DNA from: Myxococcota bacterium
Lineage (GTDB): Bacteria; Myxococcota_A; Bradymonadia; UBA7976; UBA1532
Direction of reading: 5' to 3'
Assembly (NCBI GenBank): GCA_963169045.1
Contig: CAUJDF010000075.1
Span: forward strand, 16,689 to 80,688
DNA: 64,000 bases
Part shown: positions 2,402-43,809 of the stretch, in pieces
Position numbering within the stretch: position 1 is the first letter of the stretch
How the letters are laid out: each line of letters opens with the position of its first letter
Notes under the pieces: generated by a model
What the model was told of the DNA's origin: nothing
The model's input: the letters and a program-made list of their open reading frames with translations, nothing else
The model's database searches: none
Made by a program: the position numbers and the translations under genes

Positions 2402-3956
<1,555 letters not shown>

Positions 3957-4049
3957 GGACGCGCCTCCGCGTAGACAGCGGTGTACGAGCGGTGCAAGTT
4001 TCGGGCACGCCACCGCGCCGAGGGCGGCGCCGTCACGGAGGAGAGGGCG

Positions 4050-4646
4050 ATGAAGCGGGTCGCGTCCGCGTGGCTGCTGACGATGTGGGCCGGGCCGGCG
4101 CTCGCGTGCTCCTTCAAGAGCTACCGGACGCACGAGACGGCGCCCGATCCCGAGGACGAGGCGCCGCCGGCCCAGGTGCGCGATGTGAGCGTCGACATCC
4201 GCCGCGGCCGCGGCCCCGAGGGCGGCGGCTGCGAAGGGGAGTCGTCGACGTCGTGCGACGATCTCGGCCGCGTGGCGCTCCACGTCGTGGCGCCGGCGGA
4301 CGACCGCACCGGGCCCGAGGCGATGGGCTACCGGCTCGAGCTCGTCGACGGCGAGCTCCCCGACGGCGTCACGCTGCCCACCGCGCCCGTCCGCCCTGAG
4401 GGCGGCGTCATCGGCCTGACCTGGGGGGACGGCGCCGACGACGCCCAGGAGTCCGTGTCGTTCGCCCTGCGCATCATCCCGGTCGACGCCTCGGGGCGGG
4501 AGGGGCCGCCCTCCGCGCCGATCGAGGTGTCGGACCCGGGCCGTGAGGTGGCGTGCTCGTCGACGGGCGCCGCGGGCGGCGCGCCGCTGTGGCTCCTGGT
4601 GGTCGGGTGGGGGCTGTGGCGGCGGGCCGGCGCCCGAAGAAGGTGA
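4050..4646 (+). CDS. small lipoprotein with a MYXO-CTERM-type C-terminal sorting tail
   Basis: Lipobox WAGPALAC after MKRVASAWLL. The C-terminus ACSSTGAAGGAPLWLLVVGWGLWRRAGARRR has the Cys, hydrophobic stretch and Arg-rich pattern. Confidence 0.7.
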   Translation: MKRVASAWLLTMWAGPALACSFKSYRTHETAPDPEDEAPPAQVRDVSVDIRRGRGPEGGGCEGESSTSCDDLGRVALHVVAPADDRTGPEAMGYRLELVDGELPDGVTLPTAPVRPEGGVIGLTWGDGADDAQESVSFALRIIPVDASGREGPPSAPIEVSDPGREVACSSTGAAGGAPLWLLVVGWGLWRRAGARRR

Positions 4647-11447: not shown

Positions 11448-11463
11448 TGGCACTTCGGTTGCT
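11448..11463 (+). promoter_or_regulatory. sigma-54 (-24/-12) promoter, TGGCAC-N5-TTGCT
   Basis: An exact match to the consensus TGGCAC-N5-TTGCW, read directly in an intergenic region. It lies about 45 nt upstream of ATG 11507, which is preceded by GGAGGGG. Confidence 0.65.
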
Positions 11464-11506
11464 CCGGCATCCCCGTCGGCGGCCGGTCCTGCGGAGGGGA
11501 ACGCGC

Positions 11507-12421
11507 ATGGGTCCTGCTCTGATGGTCGTGGGGCTGCTCTCGGTCGTCGCGCCGGAGGCGCGCATCGTCGTGCGCCAGCCGCCGGGGCGCGTCGTGTACT
11601 GGGTGCTGCCCGGGGCGCGCGCGCTCGAGGAGGCCACGTTCGGCACGCCTGCCGATCCGCGCTTCACCGCCGAGATCCCGTCGGCGACGCCCACGGACGT
11701 CGCCGACGTGCTGCGCCGCTGGCCGCTGCCCATCGGCGTCCCGCTCGCCATGCGGGGCACCAGCGCCGACGGCCTGCGCTACACCGCCACCGCGGTGCCC
11801 ACGCCCGCCGGCGACCACGCCGTCCCGGTGAGCGGCGCGTTCGAGGTGAAGCTCTACGACCGCATCGGCTTCGACCGGGAGGGCGCCCGACTCGACGACA
11901 CGCCGGACGCGGCGCTCGCCGACATCACGTTCACCGACCCCGACGGCCGCAGGTATCGCGTCCACCCGAAGCGCACGGTGATGCCGCCCTTCCCACGATG
12001 GGAGACGCAGGGCGGCATCCTGCGGGGCGCGCCCATCCACGGCGACACCGGCACCGGCCTGCCGCTCCTGCCGAAGATGTGGGCCTACGCGGCCTGGTGG
12101 GCCGTCGCCGACCTCACCGTCGACGGCCGCGTCGTCGACCGCGACAAGCTGGTGTGCCTCACGACGACCCAGGCCACGCGCGACGAGACCTACCGGCTCG
12201 TCTCCGGCGCCGAGCTGCCGCTGCCGCCGGAGCGCACCGTCACGCGCGTGCGCCACCACACCCGCCTGCAGGTGCTTCCGGTGCGGATCAACAGCCACGG
12301 CGTCGCCTTCGAGGCCGTCGAGACCGCCTACCGGCCCGGCGGCCGGGCCACCCAGGACTTCATCGAGATCTCGTTCGAGCAGGACGAGATCGTCGAGGGG
12401 CCGCCCTACGCCGGACCGTGA
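11507..12421 (+). CDS. hypothetical exported protein
   Basis: From ORF 11459-12421, with the start moved to ATG 11507 (MGPALMVVGLLSVVAPEA) downstream of the sigma-54 promoter and SD. No motif recognised. Confidence 0.6.
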   Translation: MGPALMVVGLLSVVAPEARIVVRQPPGRVVYWVLPGARALEEATFGTPADPRFTAEIPSATPTDVADVLRRWPLPIGVPLAMRGTSADGLRYTATAVPTPAGDHAVPVSGAFEVKLYDRIGFDREGARLDDTPDAALADITFTDPDGRRYRVHPKRTVMPPFPRWETQGGILRGAPIHGDTGTGLPLLPKMWAYAAWWAVADLTVDGRVVDRDKLVCLTTTQATRDETYRLVSGAELPLPPERTVTRVRHHTRLQVLPVRINSHGVAFEAVETAYRPGGRATQDFIEISFEQDEIVEGPPYAGP

Positions 12422-33004: not shown

Positions 33005-33040
33005 CGCACCGGCCTGTCGCACAGCGGGCGCGCCTCGTCT

Positions 33041-35290
33041 ATGCTCGCGGCCGTGCAGACGCCCGCCCCCCGTCGCTGGACCTGGGTCCCGGCGCTCATC
33101 CTCGTCTCGACGCTGGCGCTGACCGCCGTCTCGGCCTACTACACCGCCAACGCCGCGCGCGAGCGCGATCACCTCCGCTTCAAGAACGACGCCGAGGGCG
33201 TCGTGCGCGCCGTCGATGCCCGCCTCGAGGCCTATGTCGCCATGCTGCGCGCCGGGCGCGGCCTGCTCGCCGGCGACGTCGAGATCACCCGCGACCAGTT
33301 CCGCGACTTCGTCGCGAGCCTCGAGCTTCAGGCGCACTACCCCGGCATCCAGGGCCTGGGGTATGCCGTCCACGTCCCGCCGGAGCGGCTCGACGCCTTC
33401 GTGGCGGCAGGACGGGAGAAGCTGGGCGAGGGCTTCCGGCTCTGGCCGCCCGGCCCGCGCGAGTCCTACACGGCGATCGTCTTCCTCGAGCCCATGGACC
33501 GCCGCAACCTGGCCGCCATCGGCTACGACATGTTCTCGGAGCCGGTGCGCCAGCAGGCGATGGCGCGCGCGCGCGACAGCGGCGAGCCGGCGGCCTCCGG
33601 GCGGGTCACGCTGGTGCAGGAGATCGAGGGCGAGAAGCAGCCGGGCATGCTGCTCTACCTGCCCGTCTACGAGGGCGATCCGCCGGCGACGGTCGAGGCG
33701 CGCCGCGCGACGCTGCGCGGCTACGTGTATGGCGCGTTCCGCATGTACGACCTCCTCCAGGGCATCGTGCCGGGCGCCGCCTCGTCGCCGCTGGCCTTCG
33801 CCGTCTACGACGTCGCCGATGGCGAGGACGTGCTGCTCTACGACTCGCACCCCGAGGCCGACTCGCCCGACACCCGCGTGGAGGCGGTGTCGCTCGCGGT
33901 GGCCGGCCGCCAATGGCGCCTCGTCTTCCGGGCGCGCCCGAGCTTCGAGGCGGCTTCGGGGCTGTGGCTCGTCCCCTACGTGATCGGCGTGGGGACGCTC
34001 TCGGCGCTGCTGCTGTTCCTCGCCGCCTGGGCGCTGGCGCGCGAGCGCGCCGCCGCGGTGCGCATCGCCGACGAGCTGCGCGTCTCCGAGGGCGCGCTGC
34101 GTGAGAGCGAGCGGGCGCTGCGGCGCCTGGTCGACGCCGAGGGGGCGGCGCGCGTCGAGGCCGAGGCCGCCAGCCGCGCGAAGGACGAGTTCCTCGCCAC
34201 GGTCTCCCATGAGCTCCGCACGCCGCTGCAGGCGATCCTCGGCTGGGCGGCGCTGCTGCGGGAGCCCGACGCCGACGCGGCCATCGTCGCCCGCGCCGTC
34301 GAGACGATCGAACGCAACGCGCGGGCCCAGGAGCGCCTCATCGCCGACATCCTCGACGTCGCGCGCATCGTCAGCGGCAAGCTGCACCTCTCGGTGGAGG
34401 CGGTCGACCTGCGCCGCACCGTGCAATCCGCGGTCGAAGCCCTACGGCCGACCGCCGACGCCCGGGGCGTCGCCCTCGTCATGCGGCTCGACGAGGTCGG
34501 TCGGATCGCCGGCGATCCCGCGCGCCTGCAGCAGGTGGTCTCGAACCTGCTCACGAACGCCGTCAAGTTCACGCCGCAGGGCGGGCGCGTCGACGTCGAC
34601 CTGCGGCGCGAGGCGGGCCGGCTGATCCTCGAGGTGCGCGACACCGGCCAGGGGATCGCGCCGCGCTTCCTGCCGCTGGTCTTCGATCGCTTCCGGCAGG
34701 CCGACGCGTCGGCGACCCGGCGCCACGGTGGCCTGGGCCTCGGCCTGGCCATCGTGCGGCACCTGGTGGAGCTGCACGGCGGCACGGTGAGCGCCGCCAG
34801 CGAGGGCCAGGACCGCGGGGCGACCTTCACCGTGGCGCTGCCGTTCGTCGAGGCGGGGCCCGAGGCGCAGCGCCCGCCGACGGGCGAGCCGCCCGGCGCG
34901 ATCCCGTCGCTCGTCGGCGTCTCGGTCCTGGTGGTCGAAGACGAGCGCGACACGCGCGACGTGCTCGCCCGGATCCTGGGCGACTGCGGCGCCGAGGTCA
35001 CGACGGCGGCCTCGGCGGCGGAGGCGTTCGCCCTCGTCGAGGCGCGGCGCTTCGACGTGCTCGTCGGCGACATCGGCATGCCCGGCGAGGACGGCCTCAC
35101 CCTGATGCGGCGCGTCCGCGCCCTGCCGCCCGACCGCGGCGCCGTCCCGGCGGTGGCGCTGACCGCGTTCGCGCGCCCCGAGGACCGCCACGACGCGCTC
35201 GCCGCCGGCTTCCAGGTGCACCTCGCCAAGCCCGTCGACGCGATCCGCCTCACGCGTACCGTCGCCGGACTCGCCGGGCGCGGCGGTTGA
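33041..35290 (+). CDS. hybrid sensor histidine kinase with a periplasmic CHASE domain, HisKA/HATPase_c and a C-terminal receiver
   Basis: CHASE-type region (YPGIQGLGYAV..., FLEPMDRRNLAAIGYDMFSEP). H-box FLATVSHELRTPL, N/G boxes (NLLTNAVKFTP, RDTGQGI, GGLGLGLAI). Receiver VLVVEDERD...DVLVGDIGMPGEDG...LTAFA...KP. Confidence 0.9.
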   Translation: MLAAVQTPAPRRWTWVPALILVSTLALTAVSAYYTANAARERDHLRFKNDAEGVVRAVDARLEAYVAMLRAGRGLLAGDVEITRDQFRDFVASLELQAHYPGIQGLGYAVHVPPERLDAFVAAGREKLGEGFRLWPPGPRESYTAIVFLEPMDRRNLAAIGYDMFSEPVRQQAMARARDSGEPAASGRVTLVQEIEGEKQPGMLLYLPVYEGDPPATVEARRATLRGYVYGAFRMYDLLQGIVPGAASSPLAFAVYDVADGEDVLLYDSHPEADSPDTRVEAVSLAVAGRQWRLVFRARPSFEAASGLWLVPYVIGVGTLSALLLFLAAWALARERAAAVRIADELRVSEGALRESERALRRLVDAEGAARVEAEAASRAKDEFLATVSHELRTPLQAILGWAALLREPDADAAIVARAVETIERNARAQERLIADILDVARIVSGKLHLSVEAVDLRRTVQSAVEALRPTADARGVALVMRLDEVGRIAGDPARLQQVVSNLLTNAVKFTPQGGRVDVDLRREAGRLILEVRDTGQGIAPRFLPLVFDRFRQADASATRRHGGLGLGLAIVRHLVELHGGTVSAASEGQDRGATFTVALPFVEAGPEAQRPPTGEPPGAIPSLVGVSVLVVEDERDTRDVLARILGDCGAEVTTAASAAEAFALVEARRFDVLVGDIGMPGEDGLTLMRRVRALPPDRGAVPAVALTAFARPEDRHDALAAGFQVHLAKPVDAIRLTRTVAGLAGRGG

Positions 35291-35346
35291 CATCGGACGC
35301 CGTTCTCCCCGAATTTTCTCCGCTGCAACCCGACGAAGCGCATGGC

Positions 35347-36225
35347 ATGACCAGACGGATCCTGATCGTGGAGCGGGACGGGGCCGTCACCCGGACCCTC
35401 GGGGCGCGCCTCGCGGCCCTCGGCTACACGGTCGCGAGCGCCGCCTCCGCCGACGAGGCCGGGACGCCCGACCTCGTGCTGCTGGACGCCGCGCTCCGCG
35501 ACGCGCCGCCCGCCGTCGACGCCCCCGTCGTCGTCGTGGGCGCCGACGAGGGGGTCGCCGACGTCGCGCCGTCCTTCGGCGACCGCGAGCTGGCCACGAC
35601 CCTCGAGCTGGCGCTGTGCCGGCACGTCTCCGCCCGCGCGGCCCACGACGTCGAGGGCTTCTTCGCCGTCTCGCGCGACCTGTTCTGCTTCCTCGACTTC
35701 AGCGGGTACTTCCGGCGCCTGAACCCGGCGTGGGAGCAAACGCTCGGGTTCACGCGCGAGGAGCTCATGTCGCGGCCGTTCGTCGAGTTCGTGCACCCGG
35801 ACGACCGCGCGCGCACCCTCGCCCAGAACGGCGCCGTGCGCGGTGGCGGCCAGGCGGTGGACTTCGAGAACCGCTACCGCTGCAAGGACGGCTCGTACCG
35901 CTGGCTCCTCTGGAACTCGGCGCCGCGGACCGACGAGCGCGTCATCTACGCCGTCGCCCGCGACATCACCGCCCGCAAGCAGGCCGAGGAGGAGCGCGCC
36001 CACCTGCTCGCCGAGCTGCAGGCGTCGCTGGCCGAGGTGCGGACGCTGCGCGAGATCCTGCCGATCTGCGCGTACTGCAGGAAGATCCGCGACGATCAGG
36101 ACTACTGGTCCTCGGTCGAGAGCTACATCGCGCGCCACACCCGCACGCGCTTCACCCACGGCATCTGCCCGACGTGCATGGAGACGGTGGTCGAGCCGGA
36201 GATCGCGGCGCTCGAGCGCGAGTGA
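35347..36225 (+). CDS. atypical receiver-like domain, PAS domain and a conserved 4-Cys C-terminal motif
   Basis: RILIVERDG...DLVLLD (receiver-like, no clear conserved Lys). PAS (FFAVSRDLFCFLDFSGYFRRLNPAWEQTLGFTREEL...YRCKDGSYRWLLWN). Tail ILPICAYCRKIRDDQDYWSSVESYIARHTRTRFTHGICPTC. Confidence 0.75.
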   Translation: MTRRILIVERDGAVTRTLGARLAALGYTVASAASADEAGTPDLVLLDAALRDAPPAVDAPVVVVGADEGVADVAPSFGDRELATTLELALCRHVSARAAHDVEGFFAVSRDLFCFLDFSGYFRRLNPAWEQTLGFTREELMSRPFVEFVHPDDRARTLAQNGAVRGGGQAVDFENRYRCKDGSYRWLLWNSAPRTDERVIYAVARDITARKQAEEERAHLLAELQASLAEVRTLREILPICAYCRKIRDDQDYWSSVESYIARHTRTRFTHGICPTCMETVVEPEIAALERE

Positions 36226-37073: not shown

Positions 37074-38858
<1,785 letters not shown>

Positions 38859-38861
38859 GCC

Positions 38862-39197
38862 TCACGCCGCTCGGGCGCGCGCGCGGCCGAGCGTCAGGGC
38901 CGCCGCGCCCAGCGCCAGCGCCAGCAGCGCGCCGAACACCGAGTTGTTGATCGACTCGCGGATGCCCGCCGCGAGGATGTCGGCCCGCTCGGACGCCGCG
39001 AACGTCTGCGCCGCCGCCGAGGTGCTCGCGAGCCCCGCCGAGAGCCCCACCATGCCCAGCGCGAGGCAGGCGAACGCGCCGCTCGCCGCGATGCGCGCGC
39101 CGTTCGACGCCCGCCGCGCGATCGCGCCGGCGCACGCGCCCAATGCGACCGCGAGCATGACCCACATGAACAGACCGCCTTCGCGCATGAACTCCAT
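38862..39197 (-). CDS. minimal MotA/TolQ/ExbB-like membrane protein (~111 aa, 3 TM)
   Basis: Start moved to ATG 39195-39197 (MEFMREGGLFMWVML), 5 nt after GAAGGAGG. The C-terminal pattern LGMVGLSAGL...AAGIRESINNSVFGALLALAL resembles the conserved TolQ/ExbB channel helices. The assignment is inferred. Confidence 0.55.
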   Translation of the reverse strand: MEFMREGGLFMWVMLAVALGACAGAIARRASNGARIAASGAFACLALGMVGLSAGLASTSAAAQTFAASERADILAAGIRESINNSVFGALLALALGAAALTLGRARARAA

Positions 39198-39240
39198 CGG
39201 AGCCTCCTTCCCCGGCGCCGTGCCGGCGAAGTCGGGGAAT

Positions 39241-39256
39241 CGCACGCCGCGTGCCA
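39241..39256 (-). promoter_or_regulatory. sigma-54 (-24/-12) promoter, TGGCAC-N5-GTGCG, driving the ExbB-like gene
   Basis: The reverse complement of 39241-39256 reads TGGCACGCGGCGTGCG. The -24 element is perfect and the GC of the -12 element has correct spacing. About 45 nt upstream of ATG 39197, in a 186-bp intergenic gap. Confidence 0.55.
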
Positions 39257-39383
39257 CGCGTAAGTTCGCGAAATCACGAGAGAGGGTGTCCGGTGGAGCG
39301 GACGGGGGCCCCCGGGAGCGTCGGGTCGGGCGGACGGCGCCCGGGTCCGTGCGCGGTGGGCGGTCGCCCGAGCGCGGGCCGGA

Positions 39384-41438
39384 TTACGGCGCGAGGCGGG
39401 GCGTCTCGGGGAGGCGGGCGGCGATCTCGTCGAACGACGCGTCGGCCGCGGGGGCGAGGGCGGCCGCATCGCCGGTGGGGCCGAGGGCGATCGGGAGGGC
39501 GCGCAGGTCGTCGGGCAGCACGAAGGCGGCGGCGGCGGAGGCGCGCGGGTCGGGCGGGGGACCGGGGCTGTAGAGCACGTCGACGGTACGCGCGCCGAGG
39601 TCCCGCGCCAGCGCGAGCACCGGGCGCAACTCGGACCACGGCACGCGACGGTCGACGGCGAGCACGAGGTCGGGCGGGTCGCCCTCGGCGATGCGGGCGG
39701 CGAGGGCCTGCGCGACGACGGCACGGCCGGCCTCGGAGGCGAGCGCCGCGCGCGCCGCGACGCGGACGCCGTCGAGCGACACGTCGCCGCGGCCGATCTG
39801 CAGCGTGGGGCCGACGCGCGCCGGTCCGGCACCCTCGCCGGCGGGCGGGTCGAGGCCGCGCCAGAGGGAGAAGCGCCCGGCGAGCTCGTCCCACAGCGGC
39901 GCGCGCTCGCGGGCGACCACGGCGACGAGGCCGGCCGCGCCGAGGAGGAGCGCGGCGACGGTGCCGAGGCGCGGGCGGCGGGCGCGGGCGAGGGCGACGG
40001 CCACCGAAGCCGCGAGCGAGACGGCGAGCGCCAGGCGGGCGCCCTCGGCGGCGACGAGCGCGTCGGCGCGCGCGCCGCGGGCCAGGCCGTCGCCCCAGAT
40101 CCCCGCCGTCGCCGCCTCGTGCCGCACGACCACCGCCGCCGCGAGCAGCACCACCGCCCCCGGGGCGCTCCGGCCGAGCGCGAGCGCCGCCGCCGCGAGC
40201 CCCGCGACCACGAGCGCCCCGGGATCGAGCGTGGCCGCGGCCAGCGCGAGGAGGGCGACGCCCGCCGCGATCCGCGCGGTGCGCGGCGGCGGCGCGGGAG
40301 GGGCGGGCCCCGCGAAGGCCCGTCCGGCGAGGACGGCGGCGGCGAGACCGAGGCCGAGCCACGCGTTCGCGAGCGACTCGGCGAGGCCGACATGGAAGAT
40401 CACGAAGCGTTGCGCCGCGTCGCTGGCGGCGACGGCGCGCATCGTCGCCGCGAAGCCCGCCGCGGCGCCGAGCAGGCCGGCGACCGCCGGGGCCACCGAC
40501 CACACCGGCCAGCGCAGGGCGAGCGCCGCGAGCGCGACCGGGACCGGCGCCAGCAGGCCACCCTCGCGGAGCCAGGCGCGCGGGTCCGACGCGCCGTGGA
40601 AGCCCAGCGCGACGAGCGTCGCGACGATCCCCGCCGTCGCGAGGAGCCGCGCCGGCACCCGGGGTCGCCGCCCGAACGCGGCGTCGCCCGCGGCCACGAA
40701 GGCGGCGACGTCGGCCGGCCGGTCGGCGGGCTCGCGGGCGAGGCTCCGGGCCACGAACGCCTCGACCTCGGCGGCGACCCCCCCCACGGGCGGCGGCGCT
40801 CCGGTGGCCACCGTGTGCAGCACCGCGCCGGGATCGTCGCCGGCCCACGGCGGCCGCCCCGCCAGGAGGTCGTAGAGCACGGCGGCGAGGCCGTAGACGT
40901 CGGTGCGGACGTCGGCGGGCGCCCCCCACCATCGCTCCGGCGCCAGGTACGCCGGCGTCCCGACGACCGCGCCGGACCGCGACGCGTCGCCCTCGGCGCG
41001 GCCGAGCCCGAAGTCGAGGACGCGCACGCGCCCCGACTCGTCGAGCAGCAGGTTCGCGGGCGACAGGTCGCGGTGCAGGACCCCTGCGGCGTGGGCAGCG
41101 GCCACGACCTCGGCGGCGCCGCGGACGAGCCGCCACGCCTCGGCCGGGGGCACCGGGCCACGGCCCGCGAGGCTCGCGCCGCGGACGCGCTCCAGCACGA
41201 GCGCCGCGCGCCCGTCCGCCGTGGTCGTGGTGCCGTGGAGGCGCGGCACGCCGGGGTGACCGACGCGCGAGAGCAGCCTCGCCTCGCGCTCGATGCGCGC
41301 CGCCTCGCCGTCGCGCGGGATCTTCAGCGCGACCGGCCGCCCGCCGGCGTCGACCGCCGCCCACACGCGCGCGGCGCCGCCCTCGCCGAGCAGGCCCTCG
41401 ACCACGTAGCCGGGCACCCGCGGCGGCGCCTCCGTCAC
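39384..41438 (-). CDS. Ser/Thr protein kinase fused to a polytopic membrane region and a C-terminal ExbD/TolR-like domain
   Basis: Its GTG start overlaps the upstream stop (GTGA). Kinase motifs GEGGAARV, VALK, HRDLSPANLL, DFG, YLAPE. Multiple Ala/Leu-rich TM helices. C-terminal LVLAVDRRVPWSELRPVLALARDLGARTVDVL resembles the ExbD periplasmic domain. Confidence 0.85.
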   Translation of the reverse strand: MTEAPPRVPGYVVEGLLGEGGAARVWAAVDAGGRPVALKIPRDGEAARIEREARLLSRVGHPGVPRLHGTTTTADGRAALVLERVRGASLAGRGPVPPAEAWRLVRGAAEVVAAAHAAGVLHRDLSPANLLLDESGRVRVLDFGLGRAEGDASRSGAVVGTPAYLAPERWWGAPADVRTDVYGLAAVLYDLLAGRPPWAGDDPGAVLHTVATGAPPPVGGVAAEVEAFVARSLAREPADRPADVAAFVAAGDAAFGRRPRVPARLLATAGIVATLVALGFHGASDPRAWLREGGLLAPVPVALAALALRWPVWSVAPAVAGLLGAAAGFAATMRAVAASDAAQRFVIFHVGLAESLANAWLGLGLAAAVLAGRAFAGPAPPAPPPRTARIAAGVALLALAAATLDPGALVVAGLAAAALALGRSAPGAVVLLAAAVVVRHEAATAGIWGDGLARGARADALVAAEGARLALAVSLAASVAVALARARRPRLGTVAALLLGAAGLVAVVARERAPLWDELAGRFSLWRGLDPPAGEGAGPARVGPTLQIGRGDVSLDGVRVAARAALASEAGRAVVAQALAARIAEGDPPDLVLAVDRRVPWSELRPVLALARDLGARTVDVLYSPGPPPDPRASAAAAFVLPDDLRALPIALGPTGDAAALAPAADASFDEIAARLPETPRLAP

Positions 41439-42949
41439 GGCCGCCGCAGCTCGAAGGCGCGGATGAGCTCGTAGAGGTGGGAGCGCGCGAGGTCGAGCCG
41501 CCGCGCCGCCTCGGTGACGTTCCACCCCGCCTCGCCGAGCGCCTCGAGCAGCAGGCGGCGCTGGAACGCGCGCGTCGCGCCGGCGAACGTCGCCGCCTCC
41601 GCCGCGGTCGACGCGCCGGGGAAGAGGTGCGCCGGCTCGACCTGCGCCGCGCCCTGCGCGCGGATGAGGCCCGCCTCGACGACGTTGGCGAGCTGCCGCA
41701 CGTTGCCCGGCCAGTCGGCGGCGGCGAGCGCGGCCACCGCCGATGGCGACAGGCGCGCGCGCGGCAGGCCGTGCCGCTTCACCGCGCGGTCGAGCAGCGC
41801 CCCGGCGATGGGCGCGATGTCGGCGCGACGCGCGTCGAGGCCCGGCAGCCGGACGGGCAGCACCGCCAGGCGCCAGTACAGGTCCTCGCGAAACGTCCGC
41901 GCGGCGACCGCCTCCTCGAGCGCGGCGTTCGTCGCGGCGACGATGCGCACGTCGGCCTCGAGCGGCTTCGTGCCACCGAGCCGGAAGTAGCGGCGACTCT
42001 GCAGGAACTGCAGCAGCTTGGCCTGGCTCGGCAGCGGCAGCTCTCCGATCTCGTCGAGGAACAGCGTGCCGCCGGCGGCGGCCTCGACCTTGCCCTCGAC
42101 GCGGCGGTCGGCCGCGGAGTGGGCGCCCTTCTCGGCGCCGAACAGCTCGCTCTCGACGAGCGTGTCGGGCAGCGCCGCGCAGTTGAGCTCGATGAACGGG
42201 CCGCGGGCGCGCCGGCTCGACGCGTGGATCGTGCGCGCCAGCTCCGTCTTGCCCGCGCCGGACGGCCCGAGCAGCAGCACGGTCACGTCGAGCGGGGCCA
42301 CGAGCGCCACCCCGCGCAGGACGTCCGCCAGCGCCTCGGATCGGCCGGCGAGCGCGTCGGCGCCCTGCAGCTGCGCGCGCCACGGCGCCGTCGGATCGGG
42401 ACCCGCCTCGCCGAGCCGGTCGGCCCAGGGCGCCACGGCGCGCGCGAAGTCCTCGAGCAGCCGGCGATCGGCCTCGGAGAACGGGCCGGGCGCCGGCCGC
42501 TCGGCCACGTACACCGCGCCGGCCCCGGCGATCGGCGCGCACATCACCGCGGCGAGGCGGCCGGCGGCCACCGACCGCCGCGACGCGAACCGCGGATCCT
42601 CATGGGCGACGGCGGTCGAGATGGTCTCGCCGCGCGCCAGCGCCTCGCGCACGATGCCTCGCGACAGCACCGCGTCGACCTCGTCGGGGTCGCAGGCGTG
42701 CGCGAGCAGGAAGCGCGGCGCGCCCGGCTCCCCCAGGGCGAGGTAGCCCTGGCGCGCGCCCACCGCGGCCACCACGCGGCGCAGCGCCTCCTCGAGCAGC
42801 GGCCGCGGATCCTCTGCGCCGGCCAGCGCGAACAGGCCCCGGTACAGGTCCCGCTCCGCGGTGAGTCGGGCGTCGGCGCGTGCTTCGGTCACGTCCGGCA
42901 GGATCGCCGCGGCCGACCCGGGGGTCAATTCGGGCGAGTGACGCGTCAC
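41435..42949 (-). CDS. GAF-domain NtrC-family AAA+ transcriptional activator with a degenerate GAFTGA loop (GAHSAA)
   Basis: Its GTG start overlaps the upstream stop (GTGA). GAF-like N-terminus, Walker A GPSGAGKT, Walker B LFLDEIG, R-finger region, HTH NVTEAARRLDLARSHLYELI. Confidence 0.85.
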   Translation of the reverse strand: MTRHSPELTPGSAAAILPDVTEARADARLTAERDLYRGLFALAGAEDPRPLLEEALRRVVAAVGARQGYLALGEPGAPRFLLAHACDPDEVDAVLSRGIVREALARGETISTAVAHEDPRFASRRSVAAGRLAAVMCAPIAGAGAVYVAERPAPGPFSEADRRLLEDFARAVAPWADRLGEAGPDPTAPWRAQLQGADALAGRSEALADVLRGVALVAPLDVTVLLLGPSGAGKTELARTIHASSRRARGPFIELNCAALPDTLVESELFGAEKGAHSAADRRVEGKVEAAAGGTLFLDEIGELPLPSQAKLLQFLQSRRYFRLGGTKPLEADVRIVAATNAALEEAVAARTFREDLYWRLAVLPVRLPGLDARRADIAPIAGALLDRAVKRHGLPRARLSPSAVAALAAADWPGNVRQLANVVEAGLIRAQGAAQVEPAHLFPGASTAAEAATFAGATRAFQRRLLLEALGEAGWNVTEAARRLDLARSHLYELIRAFELRRP

Positions 42950-43809
42950 CGCGCGGGGGGCGCGCTCTCCTCGCCGGCCGGCGGCGGCGGGGCGCAGCCG
43001 CGGAATCGCTCGTCGTCGCCGCCGCCCTCCTCGAACACGACCTTGCCGAGGAGCGCCTGCATCTCCGCCAGGTGCCCGTCGAAGTAGGCGGCTGGCGCGC
43101 TCAACGTCGCGACGAAGAGGCTGGTGCGCCACTCGTCGTCCTCGAGCAGCTGGGTCCGGTCGTCCTGGTTGAGGGCCCCGCGCCCCACCACCAGCCGGAC
43201 GCGGCGCATCACCGCCTCGGGGTCGACCTCGAGGTGATCGAGGTCGATGAAGTCGAGCGTCGCCCCGACGGCGGGCCGCCCGCCCACGGTCGACGTGTCG
43301 AAGGTGGACTGGCGGACCGCGAAGCGCCGGTGGACCTCGGCGCCGCTGGCGTGGCCCGCGTACGCGAACGCCGCCCAGGTGGACCAGGTGCCCCGCATCG
43401 CGTCGATGCGGCGGCTGAGCAGCACCTCGAGCGCCAGCTCGGCCGTCGTGGGCCGGGCGGCGATGGAGACCAGCTTCATCGTGGCGCCGGTGCGGCGGTG
43501 CTGAAGCACCAGGCTCTCGTTCTCGTTCTCGTGCGCCCAGGCGTCCTTCCTCGCGTCGCGCGGGCGCTGCGGCGCGAACTCGGTCTCGGTCCGCCACTGC
43601 CGCGCGCGCCAGTTCGACACGAACCAGTCGTCGTCGACGAAGATGCGCCGCCCCTCCACGCGCGTCGTCAGCGGCGCCCGCCAGCAGGCGGTGGGCTCGG
43701 CGAACTCCTTGGCGCCGTTCTTCTCGGTGAACGTCGGGCGCTGGCTCGTCACGCATGCCGTCGCGCCCGCGAGCAGGGCCGCTGCCGCGATCCGGTTCGC
43801 TCCCCTCAT
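42946..43809 (-). CDS. lipoprotein of unknown function (first gene of the EBP/kinase operon)
   Basis: MRGANRIAAAALLAGATAC lipobox. Balanced composition. No motif recognised. Confidence 0.65.
   Translation of the reverse strand: MRGANRIAAAALLAGATACVTSQRPTFTEKNGAKEFAEPTACWRAPLTTRVEGRRIFVDDDWFVSNWRARQWRTETEFAPQRPRDARKDAWAHENENESLVLQHRRTGATMKLVSIAARPTTAELALEVLLSRRIDAMRGTWSTWAAFAYAGHASGAEVHRRFAVRQSTFDTSTVGGRPAVGATLDFIDLDHLEVDPEAVMRRVRLVVGRGALNQDDRTQLLEDDEWRTSLFVATLSAPAAYFDGHLAEMQALLGKVVFEEGGGDDERFRGCAPPPPAGEESAPPAR

Follow-up and report, generated by a model that had tools for sequence, protein, structure and literature searches.

Four minus-strand genes at positions 38862 to 43809 of a 64-kb stretch of Myxococcota DNA (from contig CAUJDF010000075.1; the whole stretch is referred to below as the window) were analyzed computationally, and three of them point to a conserved Myxococcota signalling cassette. 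The cassette would consist of an enhancer-binding protein (EBP), a receptor Ser/Thr kinase whose membrane half is derived from stator parts, and a small stand-alone ExbB-like protein (mini-ExbB) that is under sigma-54 control and feeds back on the system. We favour this reading with modest confidence. In order of transcription, the cluster comprises a lipoprotein-like gene (42946-43809; 287 amino acids), the EBP gene (41435-42949; 504 amino acids), the kinase gene (39384-41438; 684 amino acids) and the mini-ExbB gene (38862-39197; 111 amino acids). The EBP start overlaps the lipoprotein stop and the kinase start overlaps the EBP stop, in each case by the 4 nt of a GTGA sequence (42946-42949 and 41435-41438), and 186 bp separate the kinase stop from the ATG of the small gene (39197). 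This layout of three overlapping genes, a 186-bp gap with a sigma-54 promoter and a 111-amino-acid gene had been set out in a preliminary description of the window, and every element of it was located in the sequence at the positions given there. The kinase start is the same in a public gene call (P0001). The EBP start was less certain, the alternatives being a TTG eight codons downstream or a later GTG; with a downstream start the two genes would be separated by a short gap instead of overlapping, which would leave the operon picture unchanged. No terminator-like site was detected on the minus strand within the cluster, and the kinase and EBP genes are probably co-transcribed and translationally coupled.

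The assignment of the small protein rests on profile searches. Word-indexed homologue searches gave only five relatives, and the larger family was obtained by an exhaustive HMMER search, which uses no word index, of 1.84 billion representative proteins with a profile of five sequences from the small protein and kinase module family (profile A5). This search yielded 106 matches at E ≤ 1e-3, which formed three groups. About 65 proteins of 99 to 160 amino acids were matched over their full length; about 25 proteins of 550 to 890 amino acids carried the module at about residues 300 to 430; and a dozen proteins of 210 to 245 amino acids were matched over transmembrane (TM) helices 2 and 3, with whole-library E values of 4e-7 to 7e-4. 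An N-terminal Pkinase domain was present in all 10 of the large matches tested, and all 10 of the tested proteins of 210 to 245 amino acids belonged to Pfam MotA_ExbB (E of 1e-18 to 1e-28). A profile of the 28 kinase-embedded modules alone gave stand-alone mini-ExbB proteins scores as high as 63 bits, and canonical MotA_ExbB proteins scored 40 to 50 bits with it. One mini-ExbB relative, P0077, passed the PF01618 cut-off (25.5 versus 22.9 bits), and four others matched the same region of that profile with E values of 0.005 to 0.14. At the profile level, the 111-amino-acid protein is a divergent member of the MotA/TolQ/ExbB family, and the TolQ/ExbB-like label of the preliminary description was upheld at that level.

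A second copy of this module lies within the kinase, at amino acids 285 to 385 (40284-40586, minus strand). The small protein and this segment were 41% identical (MAFFT) and gave a Smith-Waterman score of 88, compared to 44 ± 7 for shuffled sequences (z of 6.3). Common to both were REGGL before TM1, G-x-x-G-x-x-x-G in TM2 (GLLGAAAGF in the kinase) and the loop motif AAQ-F, and in both TM3 opened with G-[IL]-x-E-S-[IL]-x-N (GLAES in the kinase). By homology, the small protein is a paralogue of the ExbB-like module of the kinase. The preliminary description had credited the kinase with a polytopic membrane block of its own; the block is indeed polytopic, and what had been overlooked is that it starts with a three-helix ExbB-like module paralogous to the small protein. 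Hydropathy analysis placed the TM segments of the mini-ExbB at residues 6 to 29, 34 to 59 and 83 to 106, and the Arg-rich TM1-TM2 loop and C terminus predicted an N-out, C-in topology. An extra helix of the kinase, at residues 263 to 281, is predicted to place the N terminus of the embedded module outside. The mini-ExbB has a TM1-TM2 loop of about 8 residues (ARRASNGAR), that of the kinase module has about 3, and neither protein has the large cytoplasmic domain.

The kinase begins with a Hanks-type kinase domain (amino acids 11 to 242; 40713-41408, minus strand; Pfam Pkinase match at 11 to 241, E of 4e-31), for which a PknB-type kinase domain was the best NCBIfam match. The Gly loop (GEGGAA), VALK, DFG and APE motifs were all present. 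Nine predicted TM helices and a periplasmic C-terminal domain follow, so ordered that the ExbB-like module of three helices comes first, then about four more helices and finally one helix with an ExbD/TolR-like domain. From hydropathy, the nine segments place the N terminus of the protein inside and the C terminus outside, and the predicted topologies of the two stator-like parts fit those of ExbB (N-out, C-in) and ExbD (N-in, C-out). The full architecture was found in 25 of the 28 large profile matches, which sets the number of kinase clusters with it at 25 or more.

Both structure and sequence bear on the C-terminal domain (amino acids 542 to 624; 39567-39815, minus strand), which is preceded by the last TM helix (amino acids 490 to 510, RLGTVAALLLGAAGLVAVVAR; 39909-39971, minus strand). 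An AlphaFold2 model made with a five-sequence alignment had predicted local distance difference test (pLDDT) values of 80 to 92 over amino acids 542 to 624 and the order strand-strand-strand-helix-strand-helix-strand. The top Foldseek match in the PDB was Escherichia coli TolR (5BY4; probability of 0.96, E of 0.05), and ExbD structures 8VGC_A, 8VGD_B and 8P9R_A were matched over 79 to 82 columns with target-normalised template-modelling scores of 0.74 to 0.78 and root mean square deviations of 2.2 to 2.3 Å. The C-terminal domain was common to 25 of the 28 large matches (E of 1e-26 to 1e-68). A profile of this 28-sequence kinase family (profile A8) matched the open reading frame (ORF) at 3516-4199 of locus L018, a Pfam ExbD protein (E of 2e-13) whose gene adjoins a MotA_ExbB gene, with 24.9 bits (P of 5.8e-10) over the linker and the domain, the match stopping short of the TM helix. 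Comparison by hhalign with a four-sequence ExbD/TolR alignment gave an E value of 7e-4 over 88 columns. Weak Pfam ExbD matches were also detected in 5 of the 28 family members (best E of 2.4e-4), ExbD being the sole recurring Pfam family among them. A genome scan with the kinase C terminus (A7) gave no match. As positive controls for the profiles, ordinary full-length exbB-exbD pairs were available at L018 2493-4199 and L017 6092-7733; these two loci, picked up by a mini-ExbB pattern, are non-myxobacterial (metagenome-assembled genomes [MAGs] of Bacteriovoracaceae and Halobacteriovoraceae). Taken at the level of profile and predicted fold, the kinase C terminus is an ExbD/TolR-like periplasmic domain, as had been proposed.

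Beyond the ExbD-like core, amino acids 625 to 684 (39384-39566, minus strand) form a conserved extension with the motif APPEAxFVLPxD[FL]xAL, which contributes an extra strand in the model (residues 162 to 167 of model 1). The title of PDB entry 8VGC describes the binding of TonB peptides by ExbD via strand addition, and by analogy the extension might be an intramolecular mimic of this interaction.

The mini-ExbB gene is preceded by a predicted sigma-54 promoter, TGGCACGCGGCGTGC (39242-39256, minus strand), which lies 58 nt upstream of the ATG, has its −24 GG at 39255-39254 and its −12 GC at 39243-39242, and differs from TGGCAC-N5-TTGC by one mismatch. A Shine-Dalgarno sequence, GGAGG (39203-39207, minus strand), is located 6 nt upstream of the ATG; the equivalent in locus L001 is GGGAG. 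Upstream of the promoter are two enhancer-like palindromes, or upstream activating sequences (UAS). The proximal site, UAS1 (GTCCGCTCCACCGGAC; 39288-39303), is the only perfect GTCCG-N6-CGGAC in the window, and the distal site, UAS2 (GTCCGCCCGACCCGAC on the minus strand; 39320-39335), has one mismatch to this pattern and is spaced 32 bp from the first. The promoter pattern TGGCAC-N6-TGC occurs twice in the window, compared to 0.57 occurrences expected. Conservation was examined in 13 mini-gene loci (11 in GTDB species genomes, the window and L001), and 9 of them had GGCAC-N6-YGC 38 to 72 nt ahead of the start codon. The per-locus chance of such a site in 120 nt is 0.023, which gives a P of ∼1e-12 on the assumption that the loci are independent, though three pairs are closely related. 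All nine promoter-bearing loci had GTCCG-N6-CGGAC with at most one mismatch within 400 bp upstream, against a background of 0.09 palindromes per kb; eight had two or more copies, mostly in pairs 31 to 34 bp apart, and L008 had one. The palindromes were absent from three of the four mini-gene loci that have no promoter. The UAS1 sequence was identical in L001 and L011, and the proximal site was 32 bp from the −24 element in the window, L001 and L012, with roughly one additional helical turn between the two in L009 and L013. The small gene is located behind a conserved predicted sigma-54 promoter with conserved enhancer-like sites, and the near-consensus promoter noted in the preliminary description is therefore one that recurs, with its enhancers, in 9 of 13 loci.

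The other TGGCAC-N6-TGC site in the window, TGGCACTTCGGTTGC (11448-11462, plus strand), is a perfect consensus sequence located just upstream of, and overlapping the start of, an ORF at 11459-12421 (plus strand), whose product has a hydrophobic N-terminal stretch. As there is no GTCCG-N6-CGGAC near this site, a different activator would be needed there. Autoregulation of the four-gene cluster through the same enhancer was also considered and was judged unlikely, since no GTCCG-N6-CGGAC was found near the upstream region of the lipoprotein gene.

The EBP has a GAF sensory domain (amino acids 46 to 173; 42431-42814, minus strand; Pfam GAF_2, GAF and GAF_3), an AAA+ sigma-54 interaction domain (amino acids 201 to 366; 41852-42349, minus strand; Sigma54_activat, PF00158, E of 2.3e-60) and a C-terminal Fis-type helix-turn-helix (HTH) DNA-binding domain (amino acids 461 to 494; 41468-41569, minus strand; Pfam HTH_8, E of 9e-7). 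Walker A (GPSGAGKT, amino acids 228 to 235) and Walker B (LFLDE, amino acids 296 to 300) were both intact, and NorR was the best NCBIfam match. By its domain order, the protein is assigned to the NorR/PexR-like group III enhancer-binding proteins (GAF-AAA+-HTH). The activator most likely switches on the stand-alone ExbB-like gene.

The distribution of the components was examined in genomes and metagenomes. The 11 mini-gene loci in GTDB genomes were all from MAGs, with the labels Myxococcota, Myxococcales, Polyangiales, Polyangiaceae, Polyangium or Sandaracinaceae; the closest GTDB homologues of the mini-ExbB (49 to 52% identity) were from Sandaracinaceae. In locus L001, whose mini-ExbB is 90% identical to that of the window, a kinase gene is followed by the mini gene. 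A DNA pattern for FGAEKGAHSxA recovered 51 metagenome loci, all of which coded for close relatives of the window EBP. At least 900 bp of sequence downstream of the EBP gene was available in 26 of these, and a kinase gene was directly downstream in 7, as it was in two shorter loci, giving nine metagenome loci in total. All six of the downstream kinases with enough sequence had both stator-like parts. In L021 and L047 the whole order of EBP, kinase, UAS, sigma-54 promoter and mini gene was repeated; the survey of co-occurrence called for in the preliminary description thus found activator, kinase and small gene together in other, divergent genomes. Overall, these comparisons indicated that the conserved core is an EBP with its predicted enhancer-promoter target, that the kinase is a frequent but facultative component and that the lipoprotein is lineage specific.

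The status of the lipoprotein differs from that proposed in the preliminary description, which had counted it as part of the module. Its gene is the first of the operon and its product has a lipoprotein-type N terminus (MRGANRIAAAALLAGATAC; ...LLAGATAC). No Pfam, NCBIfam or PADLOC match was obtained for it, and no homologue of it was found in 64 related loci. The gene upstream of the EBP varies between loci: a conserved lipoprotein gene was sought at this position in 11 related loci and none was found, the only lipoprotein gene there, in L023, being unrelated. On these comparisons the lipoprotein is lineage specific and falls outside the conserved cassette.

In the working model, the EBP would bind the palindromes and activate the sigma-54 promoter of the mini gene. 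The kinase, for its part, would sense an envelope or membrane cue via its stator-derived half and would control, or cooperate with, the EBP whose gene it overlaps, conceivably by phosphorylating it. Once induced, the mini-ExbB would dock on the ExbB-like module of the kinase via helix-helix contacts of the ExbB type, providing feedback.

Several observations weighed against this model and its component assignments. Pfam and NCBIfam gave no ExbB match for the window small protein or kinase, PF01618 being absent even at E ≤ 1, and the window kinase had no PF02472 match in Pfam and no ExbD match in NCBIfam. Foldseek E values for the ExbD-like domain were weak (0.05 to 1.1). The 28-sequence profile, when searched against PDB sequences, detected no ExbD or TolR, the top match being chain 'OT3' (7UEK) via a strand-helix-strand stretch. 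In an AlphaFold2 model of the whole membrane part of the kinase (amino acids 256 to 684), the TM helices reached pLDDT values of only 45 to 55, and the model was set aside. The catalytic loop of the kinase reads HRDLSPAN (41052-41075, minus strand), with Ser in place of Lys, and kinase activity may on this account be low. In the EBP, the loop at the GAFTGA position (amino acids 275 to 280; 42110-42127, minus strand; ELFGAEKGAHSAADRR) reads GAHSAA. GAFTGA is the sigma-54 contact motif and is regarded as essential. The sigma-54 activator of the preliminary description stands in its GAF-AAA+-HTH architecture and departs from the canonical form in this loop. The loop reads GAHSTA in the EBP orthologues of L010, L011 and L053, giving a family pattern of GAHS[AT]A, and its conservation across orthologues indicates that GAHSAA is no local defect. 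That this EBP family works with sigma-54 is inferred from the position of its genes, which adjoin conserved sigma-54 promoters with matching enhancers. The closest EBP relative, that of L053, appears to drive a lipoprotein gene instead of a mini gene, which suggests that the regulon of the EBP family is wider than the mini-ExbB genes. Finally, the kinase does not accompany the majority of mini genes or the majority of the family's EBPs, and hence the three-way link is facultative.

This last point raises the question of whether the genes are neighbours without a shared mechanism, with the mini-ExbB being one envelope protein under sigma-54/EBP control and the kinase being an independent protein that is sometimes encoded beside the EBP. 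A stator-like kinase was found nearby in only 1 of the 11 genome mini loci (L012, 2 kb upstream of the mini gene) and an EBP in only 2 (L010 and L011, in which an orthologue of 53 to 55% identity is directly upstream of the mini gene and there is no kinase). No kinase was directly downstream in 19 of the 26 evaluable EBP loci, and no mini gene was downstream of the kinase homologues P0002 and P0006. The lipoprotein gene of L053 has the same UAS and promoter design: at L053 1822-2574, a GTCCG/GGCCG-N6-CGGAC pair and a promoter, GGCACGGCCGATGC, precede a gene for a 199-amino-acid lipoprotein, and this gene and that of the EBP are convergent. However, simple proximity would not readily account for the paralogy of the small protein with a module inside this very kinase family, nor for the recurrence of the full order from EBP to mini gene in the window, L021 and L047 and of kinase then mini gene in L001. 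The EBPs of L021 and L047 are clearly more divergent from that of the window than is the EBP of L053 (phmmer E of 1e-99 to 1e-131 versus 9e-189), and the EBP and kinase genes of the window overlap by 4 nt. We consider an association without shared mechanism rather unlikely.

The stator-like parts were also compared at the residue level, with the ExbB-like motifs aligned to E. coli ExbB and TolQ. In E. coli ExbB, T148, E176 and T181 are channel residues, and the essential Asp of the partner subunit is D25 in ExbD, where it sits toward the cytoplasmic end of the helix, and D23 in TolR. E176, the Glu of GIAEAL, aligned with E81 of the mini-ExbB and E354 of the kinase, and T181 aligned with S86 of the mini-ExbB; the position of T148, the Thr of TM2, was Leu in the mini-ExbB and Ala in the kinase module. 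Asp or Glu was present in the helix before the ExbD-like domain in 16 of the 28 family members and in none of the clade of the window. The acidic residue of these relatives is near the predicted outer (periplasmic) end of the helix, unlike D25 of ExbD. The catalytic loop reads HRDxKPxN in most relatives and has Thr at the Lys position in P0041, P0061 and P0107. These three proteins also have no acidic residue in the last TM helix, and the loss of the catalytic-loop Lys and of the last-helix acidic residue may be linked.

A proton motive force (PMF)-driven stator of the 5:2 type, in which the ExbB/ExbD-like parts would conduct protons and their state would gate the kinase, coupling PMF to phosphorylation, had been implied in the preliminary description. 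In its favour, the cassette contains the two stator halves in the correct predicted topology, the TM3 Glu is kept in both the mini-ExbB and the kinase module, more than half of the family has an acidic residue in the last helix, and non-canonical proteins which put a TolR-like helix into TolQ-like pentamers provide a precedent (PMC12204202). Nevertheless, the clade of the window has no acidic residue in that helix, and the ExbB cytoplasmic domain is wholly missing. The ExbB-like and ExbD-like parts are, moreover, present 1:1 in one chain, whereas a 5:2 unit needs extra subunits. Since the window clade is without the TM acidic residue, the T148-type Thr, the cytoplasmic ExbB domain and the catalytic-loop Lys, a proton-driven motor is unlikely here, and the idea is undercut for this locus; as a general account of the cassette, a working PMF-driven stator is improbable. 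It is more likely that in the window clade the stator parts act as a sensor or assembly scaffold rather than as a rotating proton-conducting motor. A true proton-driven motor could still exist in the Asp-bearing relatives.

A related and more doubtful proposal is that the kinase and the mini-ExbB form a hetero-oligomeric stator-like 5:2 assembly whose conformational or ion-conducting state sets kinase activity. In one such arrangement, a pair of kinase chains would contribute one ExbD-like axle helix and one ExbB-like module each, with three mini-ExbB subunits closing the ring. The sigma-54/EBP-controlled supply of mini-ExbB would then tune assembly, and the complex would be a transducer derived from a Ton/Tol motor that converts membrane energisation or envelope state into phosphorylation. 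Relatives with an acidic TM residue could still be ion coupled, with the window clade representing a degenerate, non-conducting version.

An anti-phage defence module, related either to Zorya (with its MotA/MotB-like ZorA and ZorB) or to kinase-based systems such as PD-T4-6, was also considered. The kinase domain matched the PADLOC kinase models PD-T4-6, mad6 and PglW, and the AAA+ domain of the EBP matched RtcR-type models. These matches were generic and confined to the kinase domain (amino acids 8 to 260) and the AAA+ domain, and the reading was rejected; there was no PADLOC model for the mini-ExbB, the lipoprotein or the non-kinase part of the kinase, and no ZorA or ZorB model among the kinase matches listed (25 of 32). 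The flanking genes, from a reading of their translations, are housekeeping genes (pckG, peroxiredoxin and S-adenosylmethionine [SAM] decarboxylase-like), the related loci are not defence-island-like in their neighbourhood, and a defence function is highly improbable. It is equally hard to credit that the ExbB/ExbD-like labels reflect chance similarity of Ala/Gly/Leu-rich membrane segments in a 75 to 80% GC genome: the composition is extreme (77 to 83% G+C across the region), Pfam, NCBIfam and PDB sequence searches gave no direct matches (phmmer searches with the small protein and the kinase C terminus against PDB sequences returned nothing relevant) and pairwise comparisons by Smith-Waterman and hhalign with the E. 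coli proteins ExbB, TolQ, ExbD and TolR, each taken singly, fell short of significance (E of 0.05 to 0.6), but the best local pairwise matches nonetheless fell on the expected motifs, the profile matches likewise fell on family signature motifs, E values against canonical MotA_ExbB reached 4e-7 across the whole library, an independent kinase-only profile recovered the same proteins, and the ExbD-like domain, which is globular and not of low complexity, was backed independently by structure and sequence.

The surroundings of the cluster were also inspected. The divergent plus-strand gene that flanks it looks like a SAM decarboxylase gene, and the convergent plus-strand neighbour at 37074-38858 looks like pckG, both from a reading of the translations. 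The stops of the small gene and the pckG-like gene are 3 bp apart (38856-38864), with no terminator-like structure between them. Canonical exbB, exbD, tolQ and tolR genes were searched for in the window and none were found. Downstream of the mini gene of L001, at L001 2070-5813, is a gene for a large hybrid histidine kinase that is a homologue of the window ORF at 33005-35287 (plus strand). In the window, unlike L001, a peroxiredoxin-like gene and the pckG-like gene intervene between the mini gene and this ORF, which suggests a local rearrangement or insertion. The adjacent window ORF at 35287-36225 (plus strand; 312 amino acids) has a translation that ends ...ILPICAYCRKIRDDQDYW...HGICPTCM, with a Cys-rich C-terminal motif after a seemingly sensory region.

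The preliminary description knew of no account of such an arrangement, and none was found in the literature searched (ExbB/ExbD with kinases or sigma-54, stator diversity, the myxobacterial kinome and GAFTGA variants) or in database annotation. Neither kinase fusions nor TM-only ExbB homologues are mentioned in recent surveys of the diversity of stators and of periplasmic force transducers. In source annotations, the proteins of the family are labelled 'hypothetical protein' or 'serine/threonine-protein kinase', and the stator-like architecture was annotated in none of the sources examined. Units of the MotA/ExbB/TolQ 5:2 type are known as motors, in flagella, gliding, Ton/Tol transport and Zorya defence. 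If receptor kinases are indeed built from ExbB/ExbD-like parts, signalling would be added to the roles of stators, and the cassette would offer a handle on what stator modules are able to sense, such as PMF, envelope contacts or partner peptides. The TM-only ExbB homologues, at roughly 110 residues, are the smallest members of the superfamily in this analysis and could serve as a model of subunit packing. EBPs with GAHS[AT]A loops beside textbook sigma-54 promoters would be well suited to probing whether GAFTGA is as nearly invariant as has been assumed. The profiles obtained here would, in addition, annotate several dozen Myxococcota protein clusters.

Compared to canonical ExbB/ExbD and TolQ/TolR, the mini-ExbB and the kinase module share the 'GG..M' start of TM1, the G-L-x-G of TM2 and the G-I-x-E-[AS] of TM3, which includes the E176 Glu of ExbB, and the kinase C terminus shares with ExbD and TolR the same layout and fold of a TM helix, a linker and an alpha/beta periplasmic domain; the predicted topologies also agree. 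The cassette differs in having no cytoplasmic ExbB domain, its TM1-TM2 loop being about 8 to 10 residues rather than about 90. It differs further in that a single chain joins both parts to a cytoplasmic Hanks kinase and has about four extra TM helices between the two parts, and in the window clade it is without the ExbD-type TM Asp and the ExbB T148-type Thr. The cassette includes no partner gene for TonB or TolA, and its stand-alone ExbB-like gene is under putative sigma-54/EBP control. Two other cases in which MotA/MotB-type 5:2 units serve outside motility, the ZorAB proteins of Zorya and the von Willebrand factor A (vWA) proteins with a TolR-like transpore helix (PMC12204202), provide a precedent for the fusion or partnering of stator parts with unrelated output domains. 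Those systems, however, retain both the proton-binding Asp and a pentamer subunit of full size, and for none of them has a kinase fusion or a TM-only mini partner been described.

The regulatory half of the cassette most resembles NorR and PexR, with which the EBP shares its domain order. PexR, a myxobacterial GAF-EBP, has CACCG-n6-CGGTG repeats upstream of a sigma-54 promoter (PMC12754779), and the cassette has repeated interrupted palindromes of the same 5-N6-5 form at the corresponding place, but with the half-site GTCCG/CGGAC. Unlike NorR and PexR, the cassette EBP has a GAHS[AT]A loop and not GAFTGA, it would act on a mini-ExbB gene (in L053, on a lipoprotein gene) and not on ahpC, katB or norVW, and it is predicted to be co-transcribed with a receptor kinase. 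That kinase has the N-terminal cytoplasmic Pkinase domain, membrane anchor and extracytoplasmic sensor of other receptor Hanks kinases, such as PknB with its PASTA domains and those of the myxobacterial kinome, whereas its sensor is a stator-derived block of nine TM helices with an ExbD-like domain and the Lys of its catalytic loop is replaced, in the clade of the window, by Ser or Thr. Overall, these comparisons indicated that the components are all of known kinds and that the architecture and the circuit are new.

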